From Amoebophrya sp. A120 (lineage: Eukaryota > Protista > Dinoflagellata), in NCBI GenBank assembly GCA_905178155.1, contig CAJINV010000026.1, positions 132,814 to 153,455 on the forward strand: a stretch of 20,642 nucleotides of DNA, read 5' to 3'. Both the position numbers and the translations under genes were made by a program. Under the pieces are notes generated by a model that saw only the letters and a list, made by a program, of their open reading frames with translations, was not told the DNA's origin and searched no databases. Shown here piece by piece: positions 1 to 20,642 of this stretch. The number at the start of each line of letters is the position of its first letter. Positions within the stretch are counted from its first letter, which is position 1.

Positions 1-505
1 CCGACATTCGCACGACTTCCCCTCGGCACCGCTACGGAGCCTGCGCGTCTGTCAAAAAGCGGCGCGTCTGCTTTGAGGGTGCCTGTCGCAAAATAGTCCT
101 CGCCATAGTCGCTAAGCAGCACGCCGGTGGCCGGACAGCCCAGAAGGCATGCGCGCACAGCCGCGCATAGACATTCGCGCTGCTCCCGCTGGTGCCACCG
201 AAGGCCGCCAATTGGTACACGGAACGAGGGCGCGCGCGTCCGGGTAGAAGGGGCACAACCTGAAAAGGCCGGGGCGCTCTTGGGCCGCCCTTTCGTGCTT
301 TTCTGCCCCGTTAGTTGCCGGCTTGTTTTCATTTGGTCGGCGTTTAGGAGCCTTTTTCTTTGCTAGGCCGATTTGTTCCTAAAACATCATCAACAACCTT
401 TGTCTACATCGCGTCCTGGTCCTCCCAAGATGAAAGAAAACCTACAAAGAGCTGGCGCCTACCAAAAAACGAAAAAGATAAACGGCTTTTTGCCGCTATT
501 GACGC

Positions 506-773: not shown

Positions 774-982
774 TATCCAAGAAAAAAACGCTGTTAGTGT
801 AAATTTGTGATGCGCAACACGCAAGCTGATTGCGTCTGTCATGCTTGGCATGCATCATAGGGTCCATTAAAGGGCGTTTTCCCGTACTATCTGCGCATGA
901 CAGGTTTTTGCTGTCATGCCAGACAAATTTGTAATGCTGTTCCTCCAAAAAAGTTACACCTACAATGTTTTTTTCTTGGATA
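774..982. mobile_element. TIR element (family B-like), in the presumed 3' UTR of the large gene
   Basis: Ends TATCCAAGAAAAAAA...TTTTTTTCTTGGATA. Exact direct repeat TCAAC at 769-773 and 983-987. Confidence 0.9.
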
Positions 983-997
983 TCAACTGCAATAATA

Positions 998-3900
998 TTA
1001 CCAGCCAAACTCCCGGTTCTGCGGACCATTTGGGTCGGGCATAAACACCTTCATGACCCCCGTGGGCACGAACCACGTGTCCTTTGGTAGGATGCGGTTT
1101 CCCTGGCACCGACACGAGTGGAGATGCCCGGGGGCCGATATCGATGGAAAAAGCTGTCTTAGTCTACTACTCAAAGAACCTGTGCAAATCCGGCAAGACA
1201 AATTTGCGAAACACGAACACGAGGGAAAGACGTATGAGAGACGACACGACTGTCACTGTCTTGCATCTCCAGCATGACAAAAGCAAAACACTGTCTACTC
1301 CAGGACGAGGGTCTTGCGCATTACAAGTTGAGATTGACCAGAGAATGTTTTCTCTATACGATAGCCGACCGCACGGAAATACTGCGCACGTGGAATCCGC
1401 AGTTGCAATTGTTTCCCGTGATCGTGTATCAAATGCAAATATGTCTGGGTCTGGAAGGAAAAGCAGGATGCATACTTGTAATGCTGCACGTGGATTCTGA
1501 AAAAATCTGTATTGCAGGAGCAGCAAAAGCAGTGCGTTTCTTGCTACACGGGGGGGCATTTCTGATGCAGTATGGGCGTCAGAAAGCCGTCACAATAGCC
1601 GTGATGCTAGAGCATGCATCACAGACATCGCCGGGGATGCAAAATGTGCATGACAAACTTCCCGACCCAGACATATTTGCAGTTGATATCGTGTTATGAT
1701 GCGCTCCATTCGCGTACTTTTCCCACTCCGGGTGCGAAAGCGTCTGGCAATAGAGCGCCATCACCGTGCCCTTGTTGTCCTTCTGTCGCTGCGCCACTGA
1801 ATCAATGTAATTTTGCTTCCGCTCGATTTCCTCCTTGGACAGCTTGAGCTTTTTACCACCGCTATCGAAAGGAAAGACTCCCCCTCCCCATATTGAAAAG
1901 GTATTTTTCCGCAACTTTGTGTTGCTGATTTGAGGTCACAAATCACATTCGTGCTGCAAGAAGACAATGGCAGAAGCTGCCGCCTCATTATGGAAGCCGT
2001 TTGTCATGCTGTTTGGCCTAAAGGGGAGCTGTTTGCCATGCTCGACAACTAGACCCAGGCGCCTGTGCCTAGGCTGGGTATCTGGCCGCAATGCCTTCCT
2101 GCAATACAAAGCGTATTTGTGTACACAAATCCAGCCTCAGAAATTCCGTTTTGATATGGGGAGGGGGGATTTTTCATTTTGATAACCGCGCAGATCGCCT
2201 TTCGCCTCCTCGAGGTCGTCCCAATCTTCATAAGCCGCCCGGTATCAAATGCAGATATGTCTGTTTTACTTTTGTACGGCTACGGCATTACCTGGCTTCC
2301 TTTTTCAGCATGAGAAAAATAAGTAGCGCTTTTGCGCCAAAATGTGGCGAATGGTTTTCACTTCAACTTTTTGCGCCCCACGCGCAAAAGCAAGTGCTTT
2401 GAATCACGAGCGCAATAAGATTCATGTCTCGATATCCGAGGCCCCAAAGACTGTCGCCTAATGAGCAGAAAAAAGCTCGCTTTTGTCTCGCGTATCACGA
2501 CATTATGGCGTGGGACAAATTTCTCCACCAAAATTTGAAAAATCGTTTTCACTTCAACTTTTTGCGCCCGACGCGCAAAACAAAAATCTTTTGAATCACG
2601 AACGGAATCTGATTCAAGTCTCGATACCCGAGGCCCCAAGGACTGCCGCTGAATGAGCAGAAAAAATATTTTTTTTGTCTCGCGTATCACGACGGTATGG
2701 CGGAGGGCAAATTTCTACACCAAAATTTGCAAAGTTGTTTTTAGTTCAACTTTTTGTGCCCCACGCGCAAAAGCAAAATCTTTTGAATCACGAGCGGAGT
2801 CTGATTCTAATCTCGATATCCGAGGCCCCAAGAACTACCGCTTAATGAGCCGAAAAAACCTTTTTTTTGTCTCGCGTATCACGACGGTATGGCGTAAATC
2901 AAATTTCTACGCCAAATTTTGAAATATCGTTTTCACTTCAAGTGTTTGCGCCCCACACGGAAACAAAAAGTCTTTTAAATCACGAGCGGAATCTGACTCA
3001 ATGCTCGATATCGGAGGCCCCAAGGACTGCAGCTTAATGAGCAAAAAAGTCCTCTCTTTTGTCTCGCGTATCACGACGGTATGGCGTAGAGCAAATTTCT
3101 ACACCATAACTTGCAAAGTCGTTTTCACTTCAACTTTTTGCGCCCGACGCGCAAAAAAAATCTTTTGAATCACGAGCGGAATCTGATTCAAGTCTCGTTA
3201 TCCGAGGCCCCAAGGACTGCCGCTCATTGAGCAGAAAAAAGCTCTTTTTTGTCTCGCGTATCGCGACGGTGTGGCGTAGGAAAGATTTCTACGCCAAAAT
3301 TTGAAAAATCGTTCTCACTTCAACTTTTTGCGCCCCACGCGCAAAAGCAAGTGCTTTGAATCACGAGCGCAATAAGATTCATGTCTCGATATCCGAGGCC
3401 CCAAAGACTGTCGCCTAATGAGCAGAAAAAAGCTCGCTTTTGTCTCGCGTATCACGACATTATGGCGTGGGACAAATTTCTCCACCAAAATTTGAAAAAT
3501 CGTTTTCACTTCAACTTTTTGCGCCCGACGCGCAAAACAAAAATCTTTTGAATCACGAACGGAATCTGATTCAAGTCTCGATACCCGAGGCCCCAAGGAC
3601 TGCCGCTGAATGAGCAGAAAAAATATTTTTTTTGTCTCGCGTATCACGACGGTATGGCGGAGGGCAAATTTCTACACCAAAATTTGCAAAGTTGTTTTTA
3701 GTTCAACTTTTTGTGCCCCACGCGCAAAAGCAAAATCTTTTGAATCACGAGCGGAGTCTGATTCTAATCTCGATATCCGAGGCCCCAAGAACTACCGCTT
3801 AATGAGCCGAAAAAACCTTTTTTTTGTCTCGCGTATCACGACGGTATGGCGTAAATCAAATTTCTACGCCAAATTTTGAAATATCGTTTTCACTTCAAGT

Positions 3901-6900
3901 GTTTGCGCCCCACACGGAAACAAAAAGTCTTTTAAATCACGAGCGGAATCTGACTCAATGCTCGATATCGGAGGCCCCAAGGACTGCAGCTTAATGAGCA
4001 AAAAAGTCCTCTCTTTTGTCTCGCGTATCACGACGGTATGGCGTAGAGCAAATTTCTACACCATAACTTGCAAAGTCGTTTTCACTTCAACTTTTTGCGC
4101 CCGACGCGCAAAAAAAATCTTTTGAATCACGAGCGGAATCTGATTCAAGTCTCGTTATCCGAGGCCCCAAGGACTGCCGCTCATTGAGCAGAAAAAAGCT
4201 CTTTTTTGTCTCGCGTATCGCGACGGTGTGGCGTAGGAAAGATTTCTACGCCAAAATTTGAAAAATCGTTCTCACTTCAACTTTTTGCGCCCCACGCGCA
4301 AAAGCAAGTGCTTTGAATCACGAGCGCAATAAGATTCATGTCTCGATATCCGAGGCCCCAAAGACTGTCGCCTAATGAGCAGAAAAAAGCTCGCTTTTGT
4401 CTCGCGTATCACGACATTATGGCGTGGGACAAATTTCTCCACCAAAATTTGAAAAATCGTTTTCACTTCAACTTTTTGCGCCCGACGCGCAAAACAAAAG
4501 TCTTTTGAATCACGAGCGGAATCTGATTCAAGTCTCGATACCCGAGGCCCCAAGGACTGCCGCTGAATGAGCAGAAAAAATATTTTTTTTGTCTCGCGTA
4601 TCACGACGGTATGGCGGAGGGCAAATTTCTACACCAAAATTTGCAAAGTTGTTTTTAGTTCAACTTTTTGTGCCCCACGCGCAAAAGCAAAATCTTTTGA
4701 ATCACGAGCGGAGTCTGATTCTAATCTCGATATCCGAGGCCCCAAGAACTACCGCTTAATGAGCCGAAAAAATCTTTTTTTTGTCTCGCGTATCACGACG
4801 GTATGGCGTAAATCAAATTTCTACGCCAAATTTTGAAATATCGTTTTCACTTCAACTTTTAGCGCCCCACGCGCAAAAAAAAAATCTTTTGAATCACGAG
4901 CGCGATAAGATTCATGTCTCGATACCCGAGGCCCCAAGGCCTGCCGCTTCATGAGGAGAAAAAAGCTTTTTTTTGTCTCGCGTATCGCGACGGTATGGCG
5001 TAGAACGAATTTCTTGCCCAAAGTTTGAAGATCGTTTTCACTTCAACTTTTTGTCACCCACACGCAAAAAAAAAGTCTCTCGAATGACGAGCCAAATCTG
5101 GATCAATGCTTGATATCCGAGGCGCCAGGAAAGCGGTCTCATGAGCAGAAAAATTCCTTGAGGCTTCTCGCGTATCACGGCGGCGTGGCGCAACATAAAT
5201 TCTAATTCCCTCCTACTCCTGCGTTGCATGCATTACAGATCTCGCTGCCTTTCAAATTTCGCATCAGAAATTGAGACCCAGATCGATATTTGCATTGCAT
5301 ACCTCGAGCTCCTGGTTCATTTCTAGCTGCTGCTGCTGGAAGATTCGTACCCCGCACCCGTCATCGACTTGGACTTGCGCATAGGAGTATCTTTGTCCCG
5401 TATCCAGGGAATCCTCTGGCTCGGCGTACCCAATCGAGCCGTCCAAGTCGCCGTGCCCTGACATAATGATTTTCTCGTGGGTCGCGAAAGGGATCTTCTG
5501 AATGCCGCCACGCAGACCCTGGTCTTTCGTGAAGGAGATGATCGTTTTGCCGGGGACTGCACCCTCCGGACCCAAAGGGTACACGCGGCCACCACCTCCG
5601 GGTATCATTCGCGTTTTGTACTGGGCAAGGGCCTCCGCGAGTTTTTCTTTCTGCGGACCAAGGTACCTAGTTGTAAATCACAGAAGCGACTTGAACTTGT
5701 AATGCGTATAATGCGTTGCTCTTGCAAGCCACTGGATTTTGATTTTGATCAGCATTGATGTAAGTATTCTGAGAACAACTGCGCGCATGGTACTAATTCA
5801 TTGACTCATTTATTCCACATGTAGACCTCCACGCAAAGAAGCAAAAGTAGAACCGAAGATGTATAGAGAAAAGGCCTCACCACACGCAGGCCTTTGCCAT
5901 CATGCTCTTCGAGTTGTAAAAGTACTTTATCAATACCCCTTGTCGACACTTGTTATGCCCAATTGTACGAGTTGATTGTAGTCTGCCATGCTCAACCTGC
6001 CTTCCCGCATGTCCAGTATGACATTGCACAACTCCCCCTCCTGTCATTTGTATAGCATGAACGGCATGTGACAAGCATCAGCAAGAAAGCCGGTTTTGCA
6101 TGAGAAATGTACACTGGAGTGTAGTGCAAGTGCTATTTGGGCCGCTACCAGAACTTGTCATGCAAACAGTGCCATAGGGCAACGACTGGAGTCTGGGTTT
6201 TGCATGACAAATGAGGCGGAGGGGGAGTTGCGCACTGTCATATCCAGAGCTGGGTCTTCAAACGGCAGCCCGGCCGCGGTGCCGCCTTCGTTCTCCCAGT
6301 TGGATGCATTGCAAATCTGTCTGGGTCTGGGAACTTCTTGTGATGCAAATTTACAAATTGCGCGGGCGCTGCAATATGCAACCCAGCATGACAAGTTTTT
6401 GCGCTGCTGTGTGTTTCGTTTTTCGCACGACAAACTGCGTGGTTGCATGACAGGCAAGCGGCCCTTTTCCTGCTCATGCATCACAGATTTAAGAGTCACG
6501 CCAGACACACATGACAAACTTGCATTCTTCCAGACCCAGACATATTTGCAATTCATAAGTTGGATGTCATAGCATCTTTCTGCTCGCCCTTGTGGTCAGC
6601 GGCGGTCACGGGCCCGCGTTTTTTCTTTTTTCGGCCCACATTCTTTATCCGGTCCCACATCTTCCCTCCTTTTGATTTCGCATCCTTTTTTTTTCCTCCC
6701 GATTTTTTATTCTCGTCGTGGTCCTTGCTCTTGCTCTTCCCGCGATCCGAGCTTCTGGAACTGCTTTTGCTGCTCCCTCTATTAGAACTCCGGCTGCTGG
6801 TACTCGTTGCTTCAGCTTCGGTATCCCACGAAAAAAGTGTTACAGTTACACATTTGTAGTGAATTCAGCAACACAAATTTCTCTGCATGAGAGAGAAAAC

Positions 6901-9900
6901 TTGTAATGCAGAAATCCTACAGGAAAACACCTATGAAACGAGGATCCGATGCACATCCGGCATGACAGAGCTTGTTTGTCTTGCTTGGCCTGCAACACAA
7001 TGTGTAACTGTAACACTTTTTTCTTGCGATATTCGGCCTCTGGAGCCCCACCCTCATCTCCGCCGGCTTGATCATCTGCGTCGTCTTTGCCGCTACTGGA
7101 AGAACTATTTTTCGTCTTTTTCTCGCTTTTTTTACTACTACTTCCCTTGATCTTGTTAACCAATCCGTCCTTCGCGTCCCTTAACTTTTCTTTTGCGCCT
7201 TTCAACTTTTCTTTCATCACGCTTTTCTTCTCTTTGCTGCTGCTCTTGCTCGTGCTTGTCCCTCTGTTGCTGCTTCTTGTACTGCTCTTGCTGCTAGTAG
7301 ACTGGTCTTCGTTAGTACTATCCTTCGAGCTGCCGCGTCTGCTGCTACCTCTACTGCTGCCTCTGCTGCTACCTCTACTGCTACCTCTACTGCTGCCTCT
7401 ACTGCTTGTTGCAGCTTCGTCTTCATTCTCCTTGTCGCTGCTGCCTCTACTGCTTGTCTTCGAGGAAGACGAGCCTCTCCTCGACGAAGACGAGGAATCT
7501 GCTCTCCTGGATGAAGACGAGGAATCTGCTCTCTTGGATGAAGACGAGGAATCTCTCCTGGATGAAGAGGAGGAGGGCCGCGTGAATGTCTTTTCCGTTC
7601 GTTCGACGTTTTCCTCCAAAAACGCAGGCTGGAGGTCTTCATCTTCCACGAGAGCTACGTCTTCAAGGATTTCATCTACTGCAGCAGGTGGTCCATGATC
7701 TACTTCCTCGTCTGCTTGGTCAGGTCCTCGCTGCTGTCCTAGATTTATTTCTGGCTGGTATTTTTCCGTTTCAACATCTTCCACCAGAAACGACTCTCCT
7801 TGTACAACTTCCTTATCCTTTGTTGAAGATGGCGTAGGATAAAAATCTTTGTCCCCTACTTTCTCTGATACTTCTGCACCAGTATGATCTTCTACCGCCG
7901 CCCCCACGTCGTCTGGTTGGTGTACTTCGGTCCTCTCCCTGGCAGGAACATTTGCATTTGCATGAAGGTGAACATGATCTGTTCCATCGTCGTGCAATAA
8001 ACCATCTTCGTCCACCGTCGTGGTTTGTTTTTCGTTTTCCTCAGCCCGTCGTGAGGGGGAAGAAATTATTCTGTCATCCTCAACCTCCTCCTCAACCTCT
8101 TCATTGAAAACGAAACTGGACTCCGGTAGGGGCTCAGTCGTGTCTACTTCCGGGTCGTCATCTGGCGGAGCAGTACCAGACTCGGTTGTACTAGGATCAT
8201 AACGACCATCGGTTTCTTCTTGTTCTCCACCGTCGTGGTCATATGATCTCCCACGTCGAAACGGTCCCTCGTCATGGTCCTCGTGGTTGTGAAGATGCGC
8301 GTCATCATCTCCATAGAAGTCCTCGTCCTGGTGGTCATCTGCAAGGAAGGAATGATGCGCGCTGTCTCTGACAACATCATTCTCTCCGATTTCGTAGTCA
8401 TGACCGCGTTCTTCATCACCGTCGAGTTCCTCCTCTACTTCTAGCATGCTCTATCAAATGCAAAAATGTCTGGGTCTGGAAACTTGCGATGCTAAAAGTG
8501 AATGGTAGACGGACTGCAGTACGCAGCTATGTATGACAAACTTTTTGGCTCCCATGTCTTACGTATTCCGCATGGCAAACTGCGTTTTTGCATGACAGGT
8601 AAGAGGGCCTTTTCGTGCTTATGCAACGCAGATTCTCGACTCATGCCAGACAAGCATGACAAACTTGCATTCTTCCAGACACAGACATTTTTGCATTTGA
8701 TATGTTCCCGGTTTCGTCAAACGCAAGCGGCTCGTCCTCGTCTTCGCGGAAATATTCCTGTATGAAATGCAAAAGCATCTATACTACGTAGTGATTGCAA
8801 TACAAATTCACTTAGCATGATAAATGAAATCGAGAAGGGTACGCTGTGGGACCTAAAAAGCAACCGCTTCCGCTCCTGTAGCCTCAAAAACCAGCGCGGC
8901 CGCCGGAGAGTACTCCCCTCGTGATTGGCCTTGTAAATGTCACGCGATTTGCATCGTGTGGCGACGCAGTCCGCCCGTGATTGTGCTTGCTTTGAGGAAG
9001 CGTTTCAAAACAACACAAAAAACGACCGAAGTGGCCGAGTCCCGTGCTGTTTGCCGCCGGATTTGGGGGCGCGGCAAACCGGCGCACATTTTGCGCGGCA
9101 GTCCTCTGGCCCAATTTGGACCGCCCCGGGCGACCTTCCCCCGGTCTACCTCGATTTCGGGGGAGGATTCCGCAGAGGATTCCGGAGAGGATTCCAAAAT
9201 CCTCTCCGGAATCCTCTGGCCCAAGTTGAGCCGTGTTTCGCGCCCTTTCCCCGACGGCACGGCCTCGATTTCGGGGGAGGATTCCACAGAGGATTCCGGA
9301 GAGGATTCCAAAATCCTCTCCGGAATCCTCTGGCCCAATTTGGGCCGTCTTCCGCGCCCTTCCCCCGATGGCACTGCCCCGATTTCGGGAGAGGATTCCT
9401 CAGAGGATTCCTCAGAGGATTCCAAAATCCTCTCAGGAATCCTCTGGCCCAATTTGGGCCGTCTTCCGCGCCCTTCCCCCGATGGCACTGCCCCGATTTC
9501 GATCGGGAGAGGATTCCACAGAGGATTCCTCAGAGGATTCCAAAATCCTCCCAGGAATCCTCTGGCCCAATTTGGGCCGTCGGTCTTCCGCGCCCTTCCC
9601 CCGATGGCACGACCTCGGTTTCGGGGGAGGATTCCACAGAGGATTCCGGGGAGGATTCCAAAATCCTCTCCGGAATCCTCTGGCCCAAGTTGAGCCGTCT
9701 TTGGCGCGCGCCCTTTCCCCGACGGCACGACCCCGATTTCGGGGGAGGATTCCGCAGAGGATTCCAAAATCCTCTCCGGAATCCTCTGGCCCAAGTTGAG
9801 CCGTCTTTCGCGCCCGTTCCCCGACGGCACGACCTCGATTTCGGGGGGGGATTCCACAGAGGATTCCGGAGAGGATTCCGAAACCCCCTCCGGAATCCTC

Positions 9901-12900
9901 TGACCGGATTGGCGCCGTCCTTCGCGGTCTTTCCCCGGCGGCACGGCGTCGATTTCGGGAGGGGATTCCGGAGAGGATTCCTCCGGAGCCCTTTCTCCCG
10001 TGGTACGCACTACCTCATCCGGGAGGATTTCCCCGGGGACATGGCGGACCCCCCGAAGCGAGGGCGGACCCCCCGGGGGCGAGGGTGGATCCCCCGGAGA
10101 ACGGGCGGATCCCCGGAAAGCGGGCGGATCCCCCGGAGAACAGGTGAATCCCGCGGGAAGCCGGCGGATCCCCGGGGAACGGGCGGATCCCCGGGAAGCG
10201 GGCGGATCCCCGAGTAGCGGGCGGATCCCCGAGTAGCAGGCGGATCCCCAGGGCGAAGGCGGATCCCCGGGGAGCGGGCGGATCCTCGGGGCGCGGGCGG
10301 ATCCCCGGGGAACGGGCGGATCCCCGGGGAACGGGCGGATCCCCGAGTAACGGGCGGATCCCCTGGGCGAAGGCGGATGGATCCCCTGGGCCAAGGCGGA
10401 TCCCCGGGAAGCGGGCGGATCCTCGGGGGGCGGGCGGATCCCCTGGGGGAAGGCGGATCCCCGGGGAGCGGGCGGATCCCCGGGGAATGGGCGGAGGGAT
10501 TCCCTGCGCGAAGGCGACTCCCCGGGGAGTGGGCGGATCCCCTGCGCGAAGGCGGATCCCCGGGGAATGGGCGGGCTCCTGGGCGAAGGCGGATCCCCGA
10601 GTAACGGGCGGATCCCCTGCGCGAAGGCGGATCCCCGGGGAATGGGCGGGCTCCTGGGCGAAGGCGGATCCCCGAGGAACGGGCGGATCCCCTGGGCGAA
10701 GGCGGATCCCCGGGGAATGGGCGGGCTCCTGGGCGAAGGCGGATCCCCGGGGAACGGGCGGGTCCCCGGGAAGAGGGCGGATCCCCGGGAAGAGGGCGGA
10801 TCCCCGGGGAAGTTGGCGGATCCCCGGGATGAGGGCGGATCCCCGGGGGCGAGGGCGGATCCCCGGGGAACGGGCGGATCCCCCGGTCGAGGGCGGATCC
10901 CCTGGTCGAGGGCGGATCCCCGGGGAGCGGGCGGATCCCCGCGGGCGAGGGCGGATCCCCCGGAGAACGGGCAATCTGTTTCACGGGCGATATACGTGCT
11001 CCACGGTATTTAATTTCCCACAAAATAACAAGCAACCTTCGTAGTTCCGTCGTGTTTCGCGTTTTAGGTCTCAGAGCGTACCGGTCTCATGAAATTTGTC
11101 ATGCTGATTTGCCTTAGCAACGAGATTTGGAATGTATGACTGCGATTTTTACTACGAGTACGATACTTTTGCACAGGATATCCTGCTCGTCCAGCGGCTG
11201 GTCGTGGTAAACGATGTGACTTTGATCTTCTGCATCGTCATCCAGATTCATTTCCATCCCGTCGCCGGGAGCCGGGCTGTTGTACGTACCTGCTTCAACT
11301 CGGTGGTCATCGTCTTCGCGGCCCATATTTTCATCCTCATCGCCGTAGTCTCTGTCGTCATGATGATCTTCTAGGTCCGCATACTCCAGAAACCGCTCGT
11401 CTTCGTCTTCCTCTGTGTTGTCTGCTCTGTACATGATCCTTCGTGCTGGCAGCTCTGGCTGTAGTTCTTGATCTTGATCATCCACCGTCGGTAGTTCCTG
11501 GTCTCCTTCGTCGAAGAATACGTCTTCGTTGATTTCGGGAAAGTTTTCTAGCAAGGCTTGCTCCGGGTGGAAGTCTTCTTCATCTTCATCTTCTCCTGGT
11601 GCATCTACCGCACTACCTTCTTCAAAAAACTCGTCGTCCTTGTTCGGTGCAACTGGGAAGTGGTTCTCCTGCAGTTCGCGGTCGTGGAACTCATCGTCAT
11701 TTTCATCGACGCTGGCCAACATCTTCTCCTGATTTTTCTCACCCTGCTCTGTAATTTTCCTCTGGTCAATCTGTAAAAAATCCTCGCCACTTGGCGACAT
11801 TGTCCCGACTCCAGCCTGCGCCGGAGCAGCTTTATTTCCCATATCGATTTCTTTCTGCACCAGCATCGGATGCACTTCCGGTACCCCGGTGCTGCGCCAG
11901 AGGTGCCTCTCGGTGCCGTCTTTCATTTTTACTACCACCCTCTCCTATCAAATGTAAAAAGTGTCTGGGTCTGGAAGAATGCAACTTGTGATGCTGCGTC
12001 TGCATTATCCAAAAATCTGTATTGCATGAACAGCAAAAGAGGTCTAGTTTTGGCCACGGCGAGAGGGCATTTCTCATGCGGTATAGGCACAAGAAAGCCC
12101 TCACAAGATCTGCGATGCTAGGGCATGCATCGTAGACATCAGGAGTCACGCAAAACGTGCATGACAAACCTTGCATCCTTCCAGACCCGGACATTTTTGC
12201 ATTTGATATCTCCGCGAAGTCTGGGTGGATAGTATCCCTTGAAAAAACTGCTTCACTCTGAGGTGTGATGATTTTGCAAGATCTGCATCACAAGTTTGTT
12301 AATACACATGACAAAGAAAACTTGGCATGCGTGCTTCCTAAAGGAAGAACACACAGCTAGAAATCCAATGTCTTGCATGTGTAGCAACACAAACAAACTT
12401 GCATTCCGTTCTATGCATCACAAGTTTGCAGTGAAGCAGTTTCAGTTTTTTCTTACGATAGATGAGGCCGCTTCGGTAATCCGGATGATCTTCGTCCCAG
12501 AAATCAGGGTGGAGCGCGTATTATGCGTAGCAAAAATGTCTGGGTCTGGGAAGTTGCAACTTGTAATGCTGTCTTTGAATTCCAAAAAAATCTGTATTGC
12601 ATGACCAGCAACGGGGGTCCAGTTTGTCTTACGTGGAAAGGGCATTTGCATTTCTCATGCGGAATGGGCATTAGGAAGCCCTGTAAAGAAAAAGATCTGT
12701 GATGCTAGGTCATGCATTACAGGCATCAACATCATGGATCATACGAGATATGCATGACCAACCTGGCAACTTTCCAGACCTAGACATATTTGCATTTGAT
12801 ACGTATAATTTGCCTGACGCCGCGTGGAGGTTTTCTGCTCCCTCTACTGGTGCATCTACTAGTGCTTCACCGTCGTTATTCGCTTGTTGCAAGAAAGAGC

Positions 12901-14030
12901 TTTGTTGTTCTACTGGCGGTGGTGGTTCTTTTCTTTCAAAAGACGTTGCGCCGTCTACGTGCTTTGAAGATGAAGATGACGACAAAGCCGCCTGCGCCTC
13001 CCTATCGTCGTCCGGTGAGACAAAACCGTTCCCAACACCCAGCCGCTCATCATAGTCATCGCTGACATCGTATCCCAAGAAAAAAGTGTATACAGTTACA
13101 CATTTGTTCGAGTTTCTGCATCACAAATTTTCTCTGTGTGGCAGGCACAACTTGTAATGCAAAGATCATAAGGGAAAACAGAAAGGAAACGAGCCTCCCA
13201 AGCATTTCCTGCATGAGAAAGGTTGTCTCTGTTGCTGGTCTTGCATCATAATGTGTAAGAACTGTAACACTTTTTTCTTGCGATACACCCAGCCGCTCAT
13301 CATAATCATCGCTGACATCGCCCTCCGGTTCTACTACGGAGGAAGATAGGAGGTTTTGATCGGCTTGTGAAGCAGAAGCATAGTCGTCTGGTGATGTCGC
13401 GGCTTGACCTCCGCTACTATTTGTTCCGTGGTCACCGTTTCTTCCCTTCACCGTGTCCAGCTGCGTCCAGAAAAGGAAAAGGAGGAGAAACATCCAGTAA
13501 AAGCCGTTTCGGACAAGCAAGATTGGTTTCAATTGCGATAGGAGGTAATAGTGGTGAAAAACTACCCGGTCGGTTTTTCCTGTTTTCGTTTTTCGCCTCG
13601 CTCGGTTGTGTGCGTAGATTTTGCTGGTGGAGGAAAGAGGTGGTGCTGCAGACTTTTTCAAATTTGCGATCGTCGACAAGGAAATAAATGATTGGCGCTC
13701 GTCTTTTTCGGAATCAGGTGAGGCGGAAGCTGTACTGTCGCTGGACCTGAAACAGGACGCGGACGATGTTGGAAAAAGACTCTGTATGCCGCATGGCTGC
13801 ACTTGTTTTTGTCTTCCCGAGCACCACTTGTGGCCCGTGTATGATCCGGCGTGCTTGGGTGGTGACGTTGACGAAGAAGAGGGTGTCGCGGGAGATGCAG
13901 GTACAACTAACCGAAATTGAATCCGCTCTCCGAATGGTGTTTCTGCAAACGCGGCGGTCGGCTTTCTTGGAGGAACACCTCCGTCGACACCACCTGCACC
14001 ACTAGGCACGGTCGCCATTGCGCTGGCCAT
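998..14030 (-). CDS. Large 15-exon protein of unknown function (~1483 aa). It has a hydrophobic TM/signal-like segment near aa 165-190, long D/E-rich and S/R/K-rich low-complexity regions, and a Cys/His-containing C-terminus.
   Basis: Manual splicing, counting each direct repeat once. Exons: 14030-13286, 13035-12802, 12516-12461, 12227-12209, 11940-11181, 8755-8703, 8446-7032, 6816-6558, 6297-6243, 6011-5937, 5666-5302, 2237-2185, 1857-1689, 1421-1364, 1133-998. Total 4452 nt (divisible by 3), no internal stop, ends TAA. It links ORF-track fragments 13056..14030, 12710..13078, 11114..11938, 6846..8447, 5264..5608, 1579..1914 and 998..1201. Junction peptides read sensibly, e.g. GKLYALHPDFWDEDHPDYRSGLIHPDFAERVVVKMKD, DEQEYFREDEDEPLAFDETGNMLEVEE, NQELEAAYEDWDDLEEAKGDLRGGKKLKLSKEE. 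The start codon is uncertain. Confidence 0.85.
1139..1363. mobile_element. Degenerate TIR element / non-canonical intron
   Basis: Ends TATCG...CGATA with a weak TIR. Exact direct repeat GCCGA at 1134-1138 and 1364-1368. Removal restores the frame (VRS-APGHLH). Confidence 0.8.
1427..1688. mobile_element. TIR element family A / non-canonical intron
   Basis: TATCAAATGCAAATATGTCTGGGTC...GACCCAGACATATTTGCAGTTGATA. Direct repeat TCGTG. Confidence 0.95.
1863..2184. mobile_element. TIR element family C / non-canonical intron
   Basis: TATCGAAAGGAAAGACTCCCCCTCCCCATAT...ATATGGGGAGGGGGGATTTTTCATTTTGATA. Direct repeat ACCGC. Confidence 0.92.
2243..5301. mobile_element. Giant family-A TIR element / intron (3059 bp) containing a satellite array
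   Basis: Left end TATCAAATGCAGATATGTCTG; right end GACCCAGATCGATATTTGCATTGCATA. Flanks CCCGG/CCTCG match 3/5. Removal plus 5 nt keeps the frame (ELE-AAYEDWDD). Confidence 0.8.
2354..5205. repeat. Satellite of ~15 monomers of ~191-192 bp, organised as a 957-bp 5-mer higher-order repeat
   Basis: CACTTCAAC-like anchors at 2359, 2550, 2742, 2934, 3126, 3316 ... 4273 ... 5039. Near-identical ORF translations recur at 2358/3315/4272 and 2653/3610/4567 (period 957). Confidence 0.97.
5667..5936 (-). other. Canonical GT-AG intron (270 nt)
   Basis: Minus strand AAGGG|GTATTG...TTTACAACTAG|GTAC. Splicing gives in-frame SVDKGYLGPQKEKLAEALAQYKTRM and avoids an immediate TGA. Confidence 0.75.
6017..6242. 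mobile_element. TIR element (family C-like) / non-canonical intron
   Basis: TATGACATTGCACAACTCCCCCTCC...GGAGGGGGAGTTGCGCACTGTCATA. Direct repeat TCCAG. Confidence 0.93.
6303..6557. mobile_element. TIR element family A / non-canonical intron
   Basis: GATGCATTGCAAATCTGTCTGGGTCTGG...CCAGACCCAGACATATTTGCAATTCATA. Direct repeat AGTTG. Confidence 0.92.
6822..7031. mobile_element. TIR element family B / non-canonical intron
   Basis: TATCCCACGAAAAAAGTGTTACAGTTACACATT...AATGTGTAACTGTAACACTTTTTTCTTGCGATA. Direct repeat TTCGG. Confidence 0.95.
7330..7575 (-). repeat. Coding tandem repeats, (SSRG)n and SSSSRR(A)D
   Basis: 12-bp units CTACCTCTACTG and ~27-bp units CTGGATGAAGACGAGGAATCTGCTCTC lie inside the 8446-7032 exon. 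Confidence 0.9.
8452..8702. mobile_element. TIR element family A / non-canonical intron
   Basis: TATCAAATGCAAAAATGTCTGGGTCTGGAA...TTCCAGACACAGACATTTTTGCATTTGATA. Flanks TGCTC/TGTTC match 4/5. Confidence 0.95.
9103..9990. repeat. Tandem repeat, ~8 copies of ~106-118 bp, with 12-bp subrepeats and an internal palindrome
   Basis: CCTCTG anchors at 9103, 9213, 9327, 9441, 9559, 9677, 9783, 9897, with GAGGATTCC subunits. Confidence 0.95.
10020..10972. repeat. GC-rich minisatellite, ~20-21-bp unit GGGCGGATCCCCGGGGAAC, roughly 45 copies
   Basis: GGCGGATCCCC recurs continuously across the interval. Confidence 0.95.
11946..12208. mobile_element. TIR element family A / non-canonical intron
   Basis: TATCAAATGTAAAAAGTGTCTGGGTCTGGAAG...CTTCCAGACCCGGACATTTTTGCATTTGATA. 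Direct repeat TCTCC. Confidence 0.95.
12233..12460. mobile_element. TIR element (family B-like) / non-canonical intron
   Basis: TATCCCTTGAAAAAACTGCTTCACT...AGTGAAGCAGTTTCAGTTTTTTCTTACGATA. Flanks GATAG/GATGA match 3/5. Removal gives GLI-HPDFAE. Confidence 0.87.
12522..12801. mobile_element. TIR element family A / non-canonical intron
   Basis: TATGCGTAGCAAAAATGTCTGGGTCTGG...CCAGACCTAGACATATTTGCATTTGATA. Direct repeat CGTAT. Confidence 0.93.
13071..13285. mobile_element. TIR element family B / non-canonical intron, flanked by a 35-bp duplication
   Basis: TATCCCAAGAAAAAAGTGTATACAGTTACACATT...GTAACACTTTTTTCTTGCGATA. 13036-13070 and 13286-13320 are identical at 34/35 positions. Confidence 0.93.
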
Positions 14031-16029
14031 GGCTCGCGGGGTGGGGAGCAGCCCGCGCTCCCACCCGCTTCATGCGTGGTTACCACGGCAAAGCTGCCCT
14101 CATCACGAAGGAGGCATGGTTTTGAAAGGCGGTTCTCTGCGCTCCATCGGTGCGGACCGCAGGGACGGTTGGTCTGTTCGTGGTCCTCGCAAATGAGTGC
14201 CGCTTATTAGCTTTGTGACAACTCCCTCGAAGCGAGACACATACAACAGCAAAACAGGCAAGGCTGCCCCTCAAACTGTACAGATGGGGATCGCGCGTTT
14301 CCTCTCAGGCGCTCGGGTGAGAAAGAGGCCTGTTAAAGCAGGCGCTGGGGCACTGCCGCTGCAACAGAAAGGCAAGAAGCCTCGCCCCGAAGGAAAACAT
14401 CGGCGCGCCAGCCTATCCCCTCGTCCGTTCTCGCACACATCGTCTCACTCCCTCCACTCACTTCGGGCTCGGCTGGCCGTGACGAAAACAATGCCACGAG
14501 CGGGTGGCGCGCGTGCTTCATCGCGCTCCGCAAGAAGTTCTTCTATCTGTACTGGTAAAACGGGCCACTTTATATAGCAGCAATGCATGCTTTTGGCGCC
14601 CGGGCCAATTCTGGCGCGGGCGGCGGCGGGAGAGCTGCGCCATTGATTATTCCACCTCGCCCGGGCAACCCACAAACGTGGGAAGAAAAGCCGGGGCTCG
14701 CGTGCCCCCCCGGCCGCCACCAAACCGCCCGGCGCGGGCCTTCGGGAATGAATAGCGGGGGGGGGGTTCGCCTCGGACGGCCGCCGATTCGCATGGCGCA
14801 GGCCGTTCTCTTTTTAGCGCGCCGGCAGGCCCACGGAGGCCCCCGGCAAACGGGGGCCAAGAATTCGGCGCCGGGGCTAGCCGCGCACCGGCGCGGCCGC
14901 TCGCTGTGCCCGCGCGTTTTCTAGCTCTGCGGCGAAGAATGAAGGGGCGGCGGGACCGTGACGGGGCGGCCCGCTTCGTGTTCGCGCCGTACGCTTCCGC
15001 ACCAGTGCGACCGCTTTCATCCGCTTCCACTTGCCACAAAGGGCGGCCGGTGCTGCGGCAGCTTCAGCGCTTCACTTGCGCGCCTGCGGGCCGGCGCGCT
15101 TCCTTGGGTGGCGTAGGCCGCGCACTTCAAATTCGCGTTTGCCAGAGGACCGCCTCAGACCCGCGCCCGTTTCTGCGCGAGCTGCGCGACTACGGTGCGA
15201 TCCCTGGAAGGGGGCGGCGGCTGAACCTTGTTACGGAAACCCGAGCCGCGCGCCATGATGCTCTTCAACCGGTCTTGTAGTGGATACACCTAATACAGGC
15301 TGGCTTTCGTCCACTGATGTGCTTGGAACTGGATGCACATCTAGATCTAGTGCGGAGGACCCGCATCAAAATCTATTGCTCGTTCACTTAGAGTGCCCTC
15401 CAACTCAATGGCCACTCTTCTCAGTGCTGATTTCCCTAACGCAATTCCTCCGCAGTATATCCTCTTCCCTAATCTTTCAAGACGTAAAATGTAGAACTCT
15501 TCCCCTTCTCTACCCTCTTCCACTCCTGTTAAATCAGGTCTCCACACACGACATTACAGGAATCTTACGCAGGACTCCATCGGAAAATCGCGCTTGGTGC
15601 CGATGTTAAGATTAGAAAAAAATCTGATCTGGGGACGATTGAGAAGACCGAACAGCGCACAAGAATACATGTTGCCAGGAAGCACTTGCACGGTGGCAGC
15701 GAGAGCTTTCATAGTGTACTAGTTGTAAGTATTTTCTGTTCGCGTTCTTTGCCGGAAGTTGCTGTTCGTTTTTGTCGGAAGTTGCTGTATGTACAGTGTT
15801 AATTTCCATCCAACAATATATACGCGTTGACGGTCTTGCTCGTTGAAGTATTCATTGTGCATAGAGAGACAATGATTTTTACATTTAATTTCGAGTAGTA
15901 CGTACGAGATAAATTTTGATTCTGTAAAGAGTTTCTGTAAAAAAAGCTTTTCGTTAAATCTGTAAGCTGTTGTTGTTCTTTTTCATTTTCAGCGCTTTTT
16001 CATTTTCCAACCACCACTTCACTTCCACC

Positions 16030-17613
16030 CTATTCCTTGCCGCTATCCAGTGAAATAAATACATCAGGATCACAAGAAAAGCTGCGTACTTTGTACCACG
16101 CTGATGTTGCTGTTGTACCAATAGGGCATAACAAGTGTGTTGCGTTTTTCTTGTGACTCTGAAGAAATATTTTCATCAGATAAAACATCTCGCCCTGTAA
16201 AGCCGCCACCGCCCTTCGCCGCTCCCTATCAAATGTAAAAATGTCTGGGTCTGGAAGAGTGCGCGATTTGTCATGCAGCTTTTCCATGATCCATGAGGTC
16301 TGGAATGCAGGACCTAGCATGACAGATTCTGTGCGATCTTTCTCATGCCTATTCTGCATGAGAAACTGCCTCCCGACTTGGTTAAAACTGGACGACTTTT
16401 GGTAATCATGCAACACAGATTTTTGCATGCTGCAGATTTAGCATGACAAGTCGCATTCTTCCAGACCCAGACATTCTTACATTTGATACTCCCGGATGGA
16501 TTGCAATTTCACCATCTGTTGCTCCATCGCATCTATCGCCTCCTTCTCGTCCTTATCAAATGCAAAAATGTCTGGGTCTGGATGATTCCGGGATTTGTCA
16601 TGCTAGTCCGGCATGGCTCTGAGCTCTGTATTGCGTGGCCGCAAAGGGCTTCTCTTGCCTGTCATGCAGAAACGCAGTTTCTCATGCGGAGTACGCAACT
16701 CTGCACCACGGAAAAACTTGTCATGCTTGGCAGTGCATTACAGTATGCGCATTTTTCCCTGGCTTGCATCACAAGTTTCCAGACCCAGACATTTTTGCAT
16801 TTGATAGTCCTTGGCCAACTGCTGGTCGAGATTGTAGTTCAAGTGGACTTCGTTCAGTATCTCCGCTGCCTTCAGCGGATTGTTTTCGACGTTGGTGGCA
16901 ATACTGTATCAAGGTCGAGACATTTCCTATCCCAGTATCGCTGTTCACGTACATGCCTTTGTAGCCCAACATGTGACCAGCAGCCAAGGACTATGGCTTA
17001 GCTATTTCGTAGCGAAATGCGGATGTTGGTGCACCGTGAGAAGATGGCGTCTTCCGCGGATTATTTTGCGTGTGTTTCATGATCACATTCCGGAAGCGCC
17101 AACTCACTTTGTTTTTGCGGAAGCAAAAAGTATACAAATTTGTCAATGGAAATGGCTGCCGCACAGACAGAAGGAAAGAGCTCTTTTCGCGAACAACCGC
17201 ATGCCACGAATGCTGGGATCGGACTATTTTCAAGCTGACACCTTTTCCTGCACACGCATCGAAACCTGCACGTTGTCCTCCGCGACGGGGAGCATGTTAC
17301 CCCGGAGCTTCGCCCGTCGCTCTGCGCGGCGCCTTGTGTTCTCCATGCGCTCTGTTGATCAATAGTTCGCTTGATTCATACATAACTTCAACTATCTCGA
17401 ATCGAGCTCATAATTATGGTCGACTATTCATTCAACATCATATTTATTCTTCAACCGCCGCATCAACATTAATAAATTTCTTCGCACAAAAAAAAAGTAA
17501 GTACTTTTTTTATCCTTCTCGGACTCCTCTCGTTTCTGTGTCGTTTTGGCGCCGAACTTGGCTGTGGTAGAAGAGCTGCCTGTCGAACTCGATCCGATTT
17601 TTGGGGGGAGCAT
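16030..17613 (-). CDS. Small charged, probably coiled-coil protein (~140 aa) of unknown function; may extend further 5'
   Basis: Exons 17613-17505, 17351-17241, 16901-16807, 16548-16489, 16221-16183 and 16038-16030 total 423 nt in frame: MLPPKIGSSSTGSSSTTAKFGAKTTQKREESEKDKKKRMENTRRRAERRAKLRGNMLPVAEDNVQVSMRVQEKVATNVENNPLKAAEILNEVHLNYNLDQQLAKDEKEAIDAMEQQMVKLQSIRERRRAVAALQGEMFKE*. The first and last junctions are less certain than the middle ones. Confidence 0.7.
16044..16182. mobile_element. Probable short decayed TIR element / intron
   Basis: TATCCAGTGAAATAAATACATCAGGATCACAAGAAAA resembles the reverse complement of the right end, TATCTGATGAAAATATTTCTTCAGAGTCACAAGAAAA. There is no intact direct repeat. 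Element plus 5 nt is 144 nt (frame-neutral), and read-through is also open. Confidence 0.55.
16227..16488. mobile_element. TIR element family A / non-canonical intron
   Basis: TATCAAATGTAAAAATGTCTGGGTCTGGAAGA...TCTTCCAGACCCAGACATTCTTACATTTGATA. Direct repeat CTCCC. Confidence 0.95.
16554..16806. mobile_element. TIR element family A / non-canonical intron
   Basis: TATCAAATGCAAAAATGTCTGGGTCTGGA...TCCAGACCCAGACATTTTTGCATTTGATA, a perfect 29-bp TIR. Direct repeat GTCCT. Confidence 0.96.
16907..17240. mobile_element. Decayed TIR element / intron
   Basis: TATCAAGGTCGAGACATTTCCTATCCCAGTAT resembles the reverse complement of the right end, TGTCAGCTTGAAAATAGTCCGATCCCAGCAT. The direct repeat is lost, but removal plus 5 nt gives in-frame VQEK-(V/I)ATNVENN. 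Confidence 0.65.
17352..17504 (-). other. Canonical GT-AG intron (153 nt), AT-rich
   Basis: Minus strand AAAAAAA|GTACTTAC...ATCAACAG|AGCGCATG. Splicing gives in-frame EKDKKKRMENT. Confidence 0.65.
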
Positions 17614-19239
17614 GTAGCGTCCCCGGCGAATAATGCAGAGACAAGATGTGGGACAAGAACCCAATTCAAACCTGGAGTCTTCGACTTAGAGTCTGTAACT
17701 GTACGAACATGCACTGAAGTCGTTGAATGACACATGATTGGCTGCTACATTGCAGCTGTTGTCGTTCTATCTCGTTTTGAAATTCTTTCTGCAACGAGCC
17801 CGGTTGTCAGCCACGGCGCACCGTTGGAAATACTTACGATACAAATGGCGCATGTGGCTTTTGCTTTCTTTCATGCAGACAATATACGGCTCGCAGTATA
17901 ATCGCGATGATCGGTTGTTGACCCATGAATGTTCGGAGATATCGACGTCCGGTAGCGCCTTGCTGCTGGAACTGAGTATCAGACTTCAAAATACCGCCAT
18001 TTTCGCATATTCTAAGCTGGAACAATCAAGGTTCTCAATACCGCAAAACGTATTATGCCTTGTTTCGGGGCGGCAAGACAGTGCATAATCATGACAAGTT
18101 TCAAAGAGATAAACTCAACAATGGCGAACGGAATTCGTACCAAGTGACCAACTTTGCCTTTCTGTGAATATGCGGGGGCTGGACCCGGTATTTGTGCTTG
18201 ATAACCAAGTTGAAGCTCGTGTCTTGATCTGTTGTTGAAAGTTGAAAAGTTCGGTTGAAAAATTATTTATTACACAGTTCCATAAATAGCACGGGCCGAC
18301 GGATAGTCATCTTTCAGGATCGAGTCAATCATTATCATCTTTTCTCCCTCCATATCCATTCTCGTAGCACAGGATCACGAAACAACAAAATCACAATCAG
18401 ACCAAGAAGCAGTAGTTAGAATACAACTGAGCGACGAGACGGTGCTGACAGTGGAGATCGGGGACTGCAGAACCTCTTGCTCTTTTTCCTGCTCTCCGCG
18501 GAAAAGGTCCCACACTGTGGTCCCGTTCCATTTCGGGACAGGCGGCAGATGATGTGGTCGCTTGTCCATGTTCCCTCCTTCTCAAGCAATGAACAACCAC
18601 AACGCGCTGCTATTGATTACGACGAAAAAAAATGGAAAACGCTACGTATCTATTAGCGCCATATTCTGTTCATACAGTTTGGTAAAAGAATTCAGGTAGA
18701 CTGCGTCACCAACGCGAAAAGGAAAAGGTAAGGGGCGGCTTTTATTTTCGCTTCACATATTGCAAAATAAAAGTGATCTCGACATACATAGCGCGAAAAC
18801 GACAGCACGACGGGCGAGAGTAGACCGACGACAACTCAAACGGATACTCGATACGATTCGAAGATAAGTGCGCCATCTCTTCGTAGCAACGCACGATCAG
18901 ACGCGCCCGTGACACCGAGGGCCAGTACGTCGACACCAAGGCCCGAAAAAGAACAAACGGAATCCGCGTCGAAAAGACTACTTTAATGAAACTAAGTAAA
19001 AATCAATAGGAATAAACAACGAGCTCGACGACCACGACTTCGTGTAACGATCACGACGAACTTCTACTCTCAACCACTGCTCCCACGGGAAATCGTGTTG
19101 GCTCTTAAGCATGCGCGTGCAACCATCACTACTGCCAAAAACTCCGCGACTTATTATCCAAACCCTCCATCGTCGGACTTTATTGGAGCGGTGACGGGCG
19201 GCATTGGCATTGCGGCGTCGAGCATCGTTATACACTCCG

Positions 19240-20642
19240 CGGCTTTCGCTGCCTCGGCTTTCGCTGCTTTCTTGGGTCGTGTCCAGTGGAGACTGGACAG
19301 CCCCAAACCCGGGCGCCCGTGTGTGCGTCTCAGCGGGGCGACCTGCTTCGGCTTTCGCTGCTCTCTTGGGTCGTGTCCAGCGGAGACTGGACAACCCCAA
19401 GCCCGGGCATCTTTGTGCGCGTCTCAACGGGGCGAACTGCCTCGGCTTTCGCTGCTTTCTTGGGTCGTGTCCAGTGGAGACGGGACAACCCCAAACCCGG
19501 GCGCCCGTGTCTGTGCGCGCCTCAGCGGGGCGAACTGCCTCGGCCTTCCTTCGCTGCTCTCTTGGGTCGTGTCCAACGGAGACTGGACAACCCCAAGCCC
19601 GGGCATCCTTGTGCGCGTCTCAACGGGCGGGGCGAACTGCCTCGGCTTTCGCTGCTTTCTTAGGTCGTGCCCAGTGGAGACTGGACAACCCGAAACCCGG
19701 GCACCCGTGTGCGCGTCTCAGCGGGGCGAACTGCCTCGGCTTTCGCTGCTCTCCTGGGCCGTGTCCAACGGAGACCGGACAACCCCAAGCCCGGGCATCC
19801 TTCTGCGCGTCTCAACGGGCGGGGCGAACTGCCTCGGCCTTCGCTGCTTTCTTGGGTCGTGCCCAGTGGAGACTGGACAGCCCCAAACCCGGGCGCCCTT
19901 GTGGGTGCGCGTCTCAGCGGGGCGAACTGCCTCGGCTTTCGCTGCTCTCTTGGGTCGTGTCCAGCGGAGACTGGACAACCCCACGCGGGCACTCTTGTGC
20001 GCGTCTCAACGGGGCGAACTGCCTTGGCTTTCGCTGCTAGCTTTCTCGGGTCGTGTCCACCGGAGACTGGACAGCCCCAAACCCGGGCGCCCTTGTGCGC
20101 GTCGCAACGGGGCGAACTGCCTCGGCTTTCGCTGCTCTCTTGGGTCGTGGGTGCCCAGTGGAGACCGGACAACCCCAAACCCGGGCGCCCCTGTGCGCGG
20201 CTCAGCGAGCGGGGCGAACTGCCTCGGCGTCCGCTGCTCTCTTGGGTCGTGGGTGTCCAGCGGAGACTGGACAACCCCAAGCCCGGGCATCCTCGTGCGC
20301 GTCTCAACGGGGCGAACTTCCTCGGCTTTCGCTGCTCTCTTGGGTCGTGGGTGTCCTGTGGAGACTGGACAGCCCCAAACCCGGGCGCCCGTGTGCGCGT
20401 CTCAACGGGGCGAACTGCCTCGGCTTTCGCTGCTCTCTTGGGTCGTGTCCAGCGGAGACCGTACAACCCCAAGCCCGGGCATCCTTGTGCGCGTCTCAGC
20501 GGGGCGAACTGCCTCGGCTTTCGCTGCTTTCTTGGGTCGTGTCCAGCGTAGACTGGACAACCCCAAGCCCGGGCGTCCTTGTTCGCGTCTCAACGGGGCG
20601 AACTGCCTCGGCTTTCGCTGCTTTCTTGGGTCGTGTCCAGTG
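19240..20642. repeat. GC-rich satellite with a ~94-100-bp monomer, ~15 copies, truncated by the window end
   Basis: CCTCGGCTTTCGCTGCTYTCTTGGGTCGTGTCCAGYGGAGACTGGACARCCCCAARCCCGGGC...GGGGCGAACTG recurs from ~19252 to the end. Confidence 0.97.

Follow-up and report, generated by a model that had tools for sequence, protein, structure and literature searches.

The 20,642-nt window analysed here (Amoebophrya sp. A120, contig CAJINV010000026.1, positions 132,814 to 153,455) contains seven copies of a short repeat, designated family A. With high confidence, these are non-coding introner elements resembling miniature inverted-repeat transposable elements (MITEs), which lie in both orientations within same-strand genes and are removed in either orientation from contigs that are likely mRNA. 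The copies, named below by their start coordinates, are 251-280 bp long and carry terminal inverted repeats (TIRs) and a fixed-length target-site duplication (TSD) of 5 bp that was exact at six of the seven copies and matched in four of five bases at 8452. Their bodies point to the plus strand in four cases and to the minus strand in three, and they hold no transposase gene because 251-280 bp is too short to encode one. The copies and the genes that host them are as follows:

1427..1688, body plus: family A introner (subfamily A1), exact 5-bp TSD; minus frame intact once element and TSD are removed
6303..6557, body minus: family A introner (A2); first base of the left arm departs from TAT
8452..8702, body minus: family A introner (A2); TSD 4/5, informative on the cut register
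11946..12208, body plus: family A introner (A1); contig boundary at 11945
12522..12801, body plus: family A introner (A1); arms mismatched at five consecutive positions (4-8)
16227..16488, body minus: family A introner (A1), in host gene 2
16554..16806, body plus: family A introner (A2), in host gene 2
about 1354..14069, minus strand: host gene 1, a 1,464-codon stop-to-stop frame, acidic and of low complexity
5667..5936, minus strand: canonical GT-AG intron of gene 1, beginning GTAT; 270 nt skipped in 4/4 runs
16030..16900 (approximate), minus strand: host gene 2, holding 16227 and 16554; frame open after their removal

The original prediction, made from the letters alone, had placed all seven copies correctly. 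Its diagnostic words were also recovered: TCTGTATTGC is exact on the plus strand of the four copies named for it (at 1506, 12016, 12591, and 16625), TTTCTCATGCGG, described as mostly present on that strand, is exact in three of the four with two mismatches at 1559, and the reverse-complement arrangement is present in 6303, 8452, and 16227 with 1-2 mismatches. The alignment of the seven copies on both strands that it had proposed as a check was carried out pairwise on the bodies only (45 nt cut off each end) and compared with shuffles. The predicted orientations were favoured in 21 of 21 pairs, most of which scored far above shuffles, such as 11946 against 16227 (164 opposite and 33 same; shuffle means about 18-20), and 8452 indeed mirrors 16554 (110 opposite versus 38 same). 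Two subfamilies were distinguished, A1 (1427, 11946, and 12522 on plus; 16227 on minus) and A2 (16554 on plus; 6303 and 8452 on minus), so that both orientations occur in each. Within gene 1 the plus copies are all A1 and the minus copies all A2, and the register between A1 and A2 therefore matters; the relative orientation of the subfamilies was upheld in 46/46 and 106/106 cross-profile tests on copies outside the window. Profiles built from 152 outside copies (106 A1 and 46 A2) likewise gave the predicted orientation for 7/7 window copies. At 6303 the duplication (6298-6306 and 6558-6566) appears 9 bp long, as the left arm opens with a base other than the family T, and the joint there can slide over nine positions.

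The 1,464-codon frame of gene 1 appears after removal of 12 TIR elements, each with one TSD, and one GT-AG intron, with the joins at 1427 and 1863 being assumed. This frame holds five family A copies in both orientations. The claim that both host genes lie on the minus strand was thus upheld for gene 1 by its reading frame, while for gene 2 the minus strand was assigned by codon score (32.7 on minus versus -10 and -24 on plus). If retained, all seven family A copies would break the frame, three by shifting it and four by placing stops in all three minus frames. A search of six frames gave no curated Pfam match above the cut-off for the gene 1 protein, and no homolog was found among 258 candidates with one 120-aa exon as query against longer proteins only, which is weak evidence.

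Of eleven sequencing runs considered, none that covers the stretch is recorded as RNA; X3-X6, which represent one sample, are treated as probable RNA. Each of the four runs contained one contig with zero mismatches joining 5663/5934, 6011/6243, 6297/6558, 6816/7032, and 8445/8702. Copy 6303 is skipped by joint 6297/6558 (260 nt, 4/4 runs; depth zero in bin 6361-6489) and copy 8452 by joint 8445/8702 (256 nt, 4/4 runs), and the GT-AG intron skipped in the same contigs at 5663/5934 serves as an internal splicing control. In the X3 contig (6,788 nt, depth 25.6), one piece ends at 12802 and another at 11945, and the 70 nt separating them equal the exact sum of the two small exons expected when 12522, 12233, and 11946 each leave with one TSD; the outer boundaries and this exact length fit support skipping of 11946 and 12522 in X3 as well. 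Element joints therefore cover four of the seven family A copies, 6303 and 8452 directly and 11946 and 12522 by length fit, and no joint at 16227 or 16554 was among the joints listed. The prediction that removal is independent of orientation held qualitatively, in that a single probable-RNA contig skips 6303 and 8452 (minus) and 11946 and 12522 (plus), each loss amounting to the element plus one TSD; contigs drop rare forms, and the joints show the assembled form and not splicing efficiency. The raw RNA runs X9 and X10 gave 47 and 3 reads on the stretch, all partial.

Run X1 displayed the complementary pattern. Its contigs pass from unique flanks into the elements at single-copy-like depth and across intergenic DNA uncovered by X3, which had no depth over 14278-14825, and its summed depth over the elements was very high. 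As X1 keeps the elements and the intergenic DNA while X3-X6 skip the elements together with the GT-AG intron, X1 was taken as DNA and X3-X6 as spliced RNA.

Outside the window, an exact 28-nt arm was used as seed and identified at least 142 loci totalling 405,915 nt; the matches listed all belong to one other assembly and were judged from DNA sequence alone, with the window excluded from codon-score training. A strict finder identified 317 unique outside elements, 265 with an exact 5-bp TSD. Run on a reversed control of 127,605 nt, it returned one match; the looser finder that served for in-silico splicing had 13 control matches. On the window elements the codon score called 13 of 14 minus and one ambiguous. 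The 142 outside loci listed, which stand in for the genome-wide count proposed in the original prediction, contained 155 family A copies, of which 56 had no strand call and three no orientation; the other 96 split 62:34 relative to the inferred gene strand (p=0.006). A stricter threshold gave 33:25 (p=0.36), a looser one gave 73:44, and restriction to one copy per locus gave 43:26 (p=0.053); both orientations occurred together in 10 loci. Both orientations are thus common, probably with a mild bias, and retention would break the frame for 91 of the 96 copies.

The window elements match the published A120-type introners, and the system is therefore already known. In its available portion, the A120 genome study (PMC7789003) describes introners with an inverted repeat of TAT, seven variable bases, and AAA and direct repeats of 3-5 nt, the commonest being 4 nt upstream from the 5′ end, and leaves the mechanism open. 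The same portion reports that over 60% of Amoebophrya introns are without GT-AG ends, that the "predominant" A120 non-canonical sites have T second in 9/9, and that strain A25 repeats start with TTA followed by two purines (PMC7789003). An inverted repeat of at least 8-20 nt links the intron ends in 15/15 window elements. The TAT/7/AAA repeat, boundary direct repeat, non-GT-AG ends, length of about 240 nt, many copies per gene, and co-oriented genes are all shared with the window elements, and no anatomical difference was found in what that source makes available. Its available text mentions orientation for genes only and calls the cut site variable (PMC7789003). As far as the searches reach, the additions made here are two-way removal on one transcript, a 3-5 nt limit on the register, and unpaired arm positions 4-7; a literature search with subscription papers outside its scope returned none that reports removal of Amoebophrya elements in both orientations. 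Available sections of two further studies describe a method that permits opposite-orientation insertion (PMC9860276) and diverse A120 introners including one TIR-flanked family with Copia-like homology (PMC12130899).

The ends of the elements differ from their bodies in being symmetric over about 30-55 terminal bases, and the arms are alike in composition when read in transcript sense. TAT was found at 206 of the 5′ and 204 of the 3′ arms (212 each), a frequency partly by construction as the finder demanded near-TAT ends, and AAA occupied positions 11-13 in 181 and 178. Either orientation consequently offers identical 5′ (TAT..AAAA) and identical U-rich 3′ (..TTTT..ATA) text. Symmetric ends present any polar signal either way, and orientation independence therefore excludes only a required signal carried in the asymmetric body. 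This bears on the conclusion of the original prediction, which had argued from orientation independence against a polar branch-point or polypyrimidine signal and for recognition of the TIR stem. In that form the argument is not supported, given the symmetric ends, the absence of covariation or G-U excess described below, and published introners with G[TCA]-AG ends that function in either orientation; stem recognition is a live rival and not a deduction.

The cut register was limited by three joints with mismatched TSDs (8452, 13071, and 2243), at which the upstream copy was kept through position 3. The 5′ cut is thereby restricted to 0-2 nt ahead of TAT, and the 3′ cut to 3-5 nt past ATA. No fixed pair of terminal dinucleotides was identified at any register (n=212), and none of the nine element joints in the window is readable as GT-AG while one permits GA-AG. 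A co-opted AG or GT within the TSD was considered and rejected, as the TSDs favour neither dinucleotide and only 12/212 could be read as GT-AG at any register (29/212 as G[TCA]-AG). Within the window, all TSD mismatches fall at transcript positions 1-3 (7/7), but such a pattern was likewise rejected on counts of 11, 6, 4, 4, and 6 outside. The idea of a guide sequence, suggested by 8761 and 12522, in which arm positions 4-10 copy or pair with the flank, yielded nothing above z=2.5 in 140 tests on 636 arms and was also rejected.

On balance, we favour removal by a spliceosome with a relaxed GT-AG rule that would read signals in the inverted ends, the stem helping as a bridge, over pure stem recognition. 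A cut-and-paste transposase or integrase would insert the element either way and leave the 5-bp TSD seen in its anatomy, although no such enzyme was found for this step. In the transcript, the arms are predicted to fold into a long stem that may draw the ends together even across 2-3 kb. The mismatched TSDs put the 5′ cut 0-2 nt before the terminal UAU and the 3′ cut 3-5 nt after the terminal AUA, and a 1-nt register would yield an N-U-A-U-(C/G) donor. The 3′ site would likely be set by distance from the U-rich 3′ arm with no AG needed, and the branch point could be the A of the terminal UGAUA. The 1-nt register allows a resemblance to the GUAU donors of the genome's canonical introns, as predicted ab initio in outside loci L001-L078: GTAT was found in 14/102 predicted donors versus 33/601 nearby GT sites (p=0.0045) and GTA in 39/102 versus 112/601, with no such enrichment for the control dinucleotides CT, AT, and TT. 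A first script version agreed (GTAT in 36/228 redundant calls). The predicted donors often read GTATA, and the acceptors are A/C-rich, often ending ACAG, and without a pyrimidine tract, so tract-less introners would not be set apart by that feature. Also on the side of a spliceosome, the accessible part of the A120 study reports one that is almost complete, though with U1 undetectable (PMC7789003), and in Fritillaria the U2 spliceosome removes TIR-derived non-canonical introns.

Several observations weigh against this preference. The RNA status of X3-X6 is a guess about a single sample, and the joints still permit three cut registers. The available part of the published A120 splice-site table, blurred by the direct repeats, has 8/9 rows ending A-N, which fits another register (PMC7789003). 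Deviations are equal at both arms, with six (5′) versus eight (3′) departures from TAT and 31 versus 34 from the A-tract among 212; as the arms deviate alike, with no transcript-polar constraint, the needs of a transposase explain the terminal TAT and A-tract equally well. A strong stem in every element tested (z -6.7 and -4.5) fits stem recognition. The GTAT enrichment comes from ab initio predictions only and appeared in two of three script versions, the remaining one giving 5/66 (p=0.41) under an objective judged faulty.

The strongest competitor, itself rather doubtful, develops the stem recognition of the original prediction: a structure-specific non-spliceosomal endonuclease and a ligase would recognise the symmetric TIR stem, with staggered cutting at the stem's base, along the lines proposed for the nonconventional introns of euglenids (available text of PMC11282704). 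Long terminal stems were predicted on both strands for 13/13 short elements folded, and elements of 2.4 and 3.1 kb leave as cleanly as short ones. The want of a dinucleotide rule at any register also suits this explanation, as does the undetectable U1 of the A120 study (PMC7789003). The outer stem is, however, often broken. At each of positions 4-7, an element's two arms disagree in 43-116 of 212 cases, compared with 2-6 for positions 1-3, where the finder demanded near-TAT ends; only 26/212 have arms identical over positions 1-10, and 92/212 have at least two non-G-U mismatches at positions 4-8. In family A, the arms match at positions 4-7 no better than shuffled arms (0.483 versus 0.523; n=44 unseeded copies), and the match above shuffles in 171 elements of other families (0.598 versus 0.377) is what mixing families gives. 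G-U mismatches did not exceed A-C in the inner stem (65:68) or at positions 4-10 (56:77), a wobble comparison of limited power if selection tolerates scattered mismatches. With no covariation at positions 4-7 and no G-U excess, no selection on pairing was found, and copy 12522 was exactly skipped despite its five consecutive arm mismatches.

Family A arm positions 4, 5, 7, 10, and 15 are hypervariable (L001-L142). Among 48 nearest-neighbour pairs with similar bodies, position 7 differed in 19 (left) and 16 (right), positions 6, 8, and 9 almost never. Identical arm variants turn up in both subfamilies and on either arm, suggesting that ends are swapped or converted between elements.

Marginally less probable still is a separate, non-spliceosomal RNA surgery system that would remove any TAT-ended inverted-repeat element together with one 5-nt duplication, in either orientation, from any target, and over 0.2-3 kb. 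If true, transposons would be invisible to the proteome, and an insertion would erase itself without GT, AG, or a perfect stem end.

Skipping at the level of DNA or transcription, by programmed excision during some life stages or by polymerase slippage between TSD copies across the hairpin, is very unlikely. Precise excision would also cause loss of the element plus one TSD, and the joints of X1, crowded with repeats, are only partly resolved; yet in X1 contigs the elements stand beside unique flanks at single-copy-like depth, the GT-AG intron too is missing from the contigs that skip them, X3 has no depth over 14278-14825, and three joints offer just 2-3 nt of shared sequence. Reverse-transcriptase template switching from one direct repeat to the other over a strong hairpin, a familiar artefact whose signature is a hairpin, a short direct repeat, and non-canonical ends, has the least to recommend it. 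Although all support comes from cDNA-type contigs of one sample, every joint seen was assembled in the skipped form, a 1,464-codon frame is restored by removal and would be broken by any retained copy, and the skipping of a 3-kb element involves just 2 nt of shared sequence.

The window elements have partial parallels in other lineages, as far as the available sections of the respective studies show. Introners of Polarella glacialis occur in either orientation with a bias, as in Aureococcus anophagefferens (bioRxiv 10.1101/2020.10.14.339549), and share with the Amoebophrya elements TIRs, TSDs, and the making of introns both ways round, one orientation being favoured (here 62:34). In contrast, they take GA/GT/GC and AG from the element or from a constrained TSD, whereas the TSD here is unconstrained and their G[TCA] donor with AG acceptor is possible in only the 29/212 given above. 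The non-canonical introns of Fritillaria borealis are similar in being MITE-derived, with TIRs, TSDs, and non-GT-AG ends, and are removed by an adapted U2 spliceosome (PMC11282704); unlike the elements here, for which no fixed terminal dinucleotide pair is seen, they prefer AG-AC and AG-AT ends and an exonic TAC. Euglenid nonconventional introns share the TIR stem, TSD-like repeats, and a length of dozens to thousands of nucleotides, while their pairing of CAG (+4..6) with a CTG close to the 3′ end is absent here, where arm positions 4-6 are mostly C/G, A, and A.

A systematic search identified 15 TAT-ended inverted-repeat elements in the window, chosen by eye among 32 candidate pairings. Those outside family A are:

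774..982: TAT-ended TIR element past the gene 1 stop codon; exact TSD; codon score ambiguous on strand
1863..2184: introner, another family; exact TSD; frame kept on removal
2243..5301: TIR element, 3.06 kb, holding a 192-bp tandem array; TSD 3/5; skipped whole
6017..6242: introner, another TAT-ended family; joint 6011/6243 in 4/4 runs
6822..7031: introner, another TAT-ended family; joint 6816/7032 in 4/4 runs
8761..11180: TIR element, 2.42 kb, holding 114-bp and 19-bp arrays; exact TSD; skipped whole
12233..12460: introner, another family; TSD 3/5; several arm mismatches among positions 5-8; removal inferred from the 70-nt gap
13071..13285: introner, another family; TSD 3/5, informative on the cut register; neighbouring X3 contig pieces 13064/13285

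Tandem arrays have enlarged two of these introners, 2243-5301 to 3.1 kb (192 bp x 14.5) and 8761-11180 to 2.4 kb (114 bp x 7.3 plus a 19-bp array), yet both are precisely skipped in probable-RNA contigs: in X4 and X6 a loose end at 5302 corresponds to 2208-2237, and in 4/4 runs one at 8760 corresponds to 11186 onward. In the 2.4-kb element, the right end and TSD form a perfect 12-bp palindrome (8756-8760 and 11174-11185). A further tandem array with 94-102 bp units spans 19227-20642, reaching the window end, and may be the interior of another long element. The X3 contig extends 2,573 nt beyond position 5302, where only about 290 nt of coding sequence is left; the transcript or contig therefore continues well past the stop codon and probably crosses element 774-982. 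No autonomous partner with the same ends was identified among five long elements checked. At outside locus L076, a TIR-bounded stretch of 2,459 bp (476-2934) with an exact TSD encloses a 415-aa frame with no Pfam match; it is an element bearing cargo or else two ends paired by chance.

For Amoebophrya, two-way removal on one transcript together with the limits on the cut register is a useful mechanistic lead within a known system. The locus narrows the splicing question of the genus to a setting in which the element body is irrelevant, the target is free, the cut is held to a 3-nt span, and breaks in the outer stem are frequent. Insertion tolerated either way and at any 5-mer offers a far larger target than that of introners needing AG or GT, and this combination of a free target with either orientation therefore explains the elements' spread.

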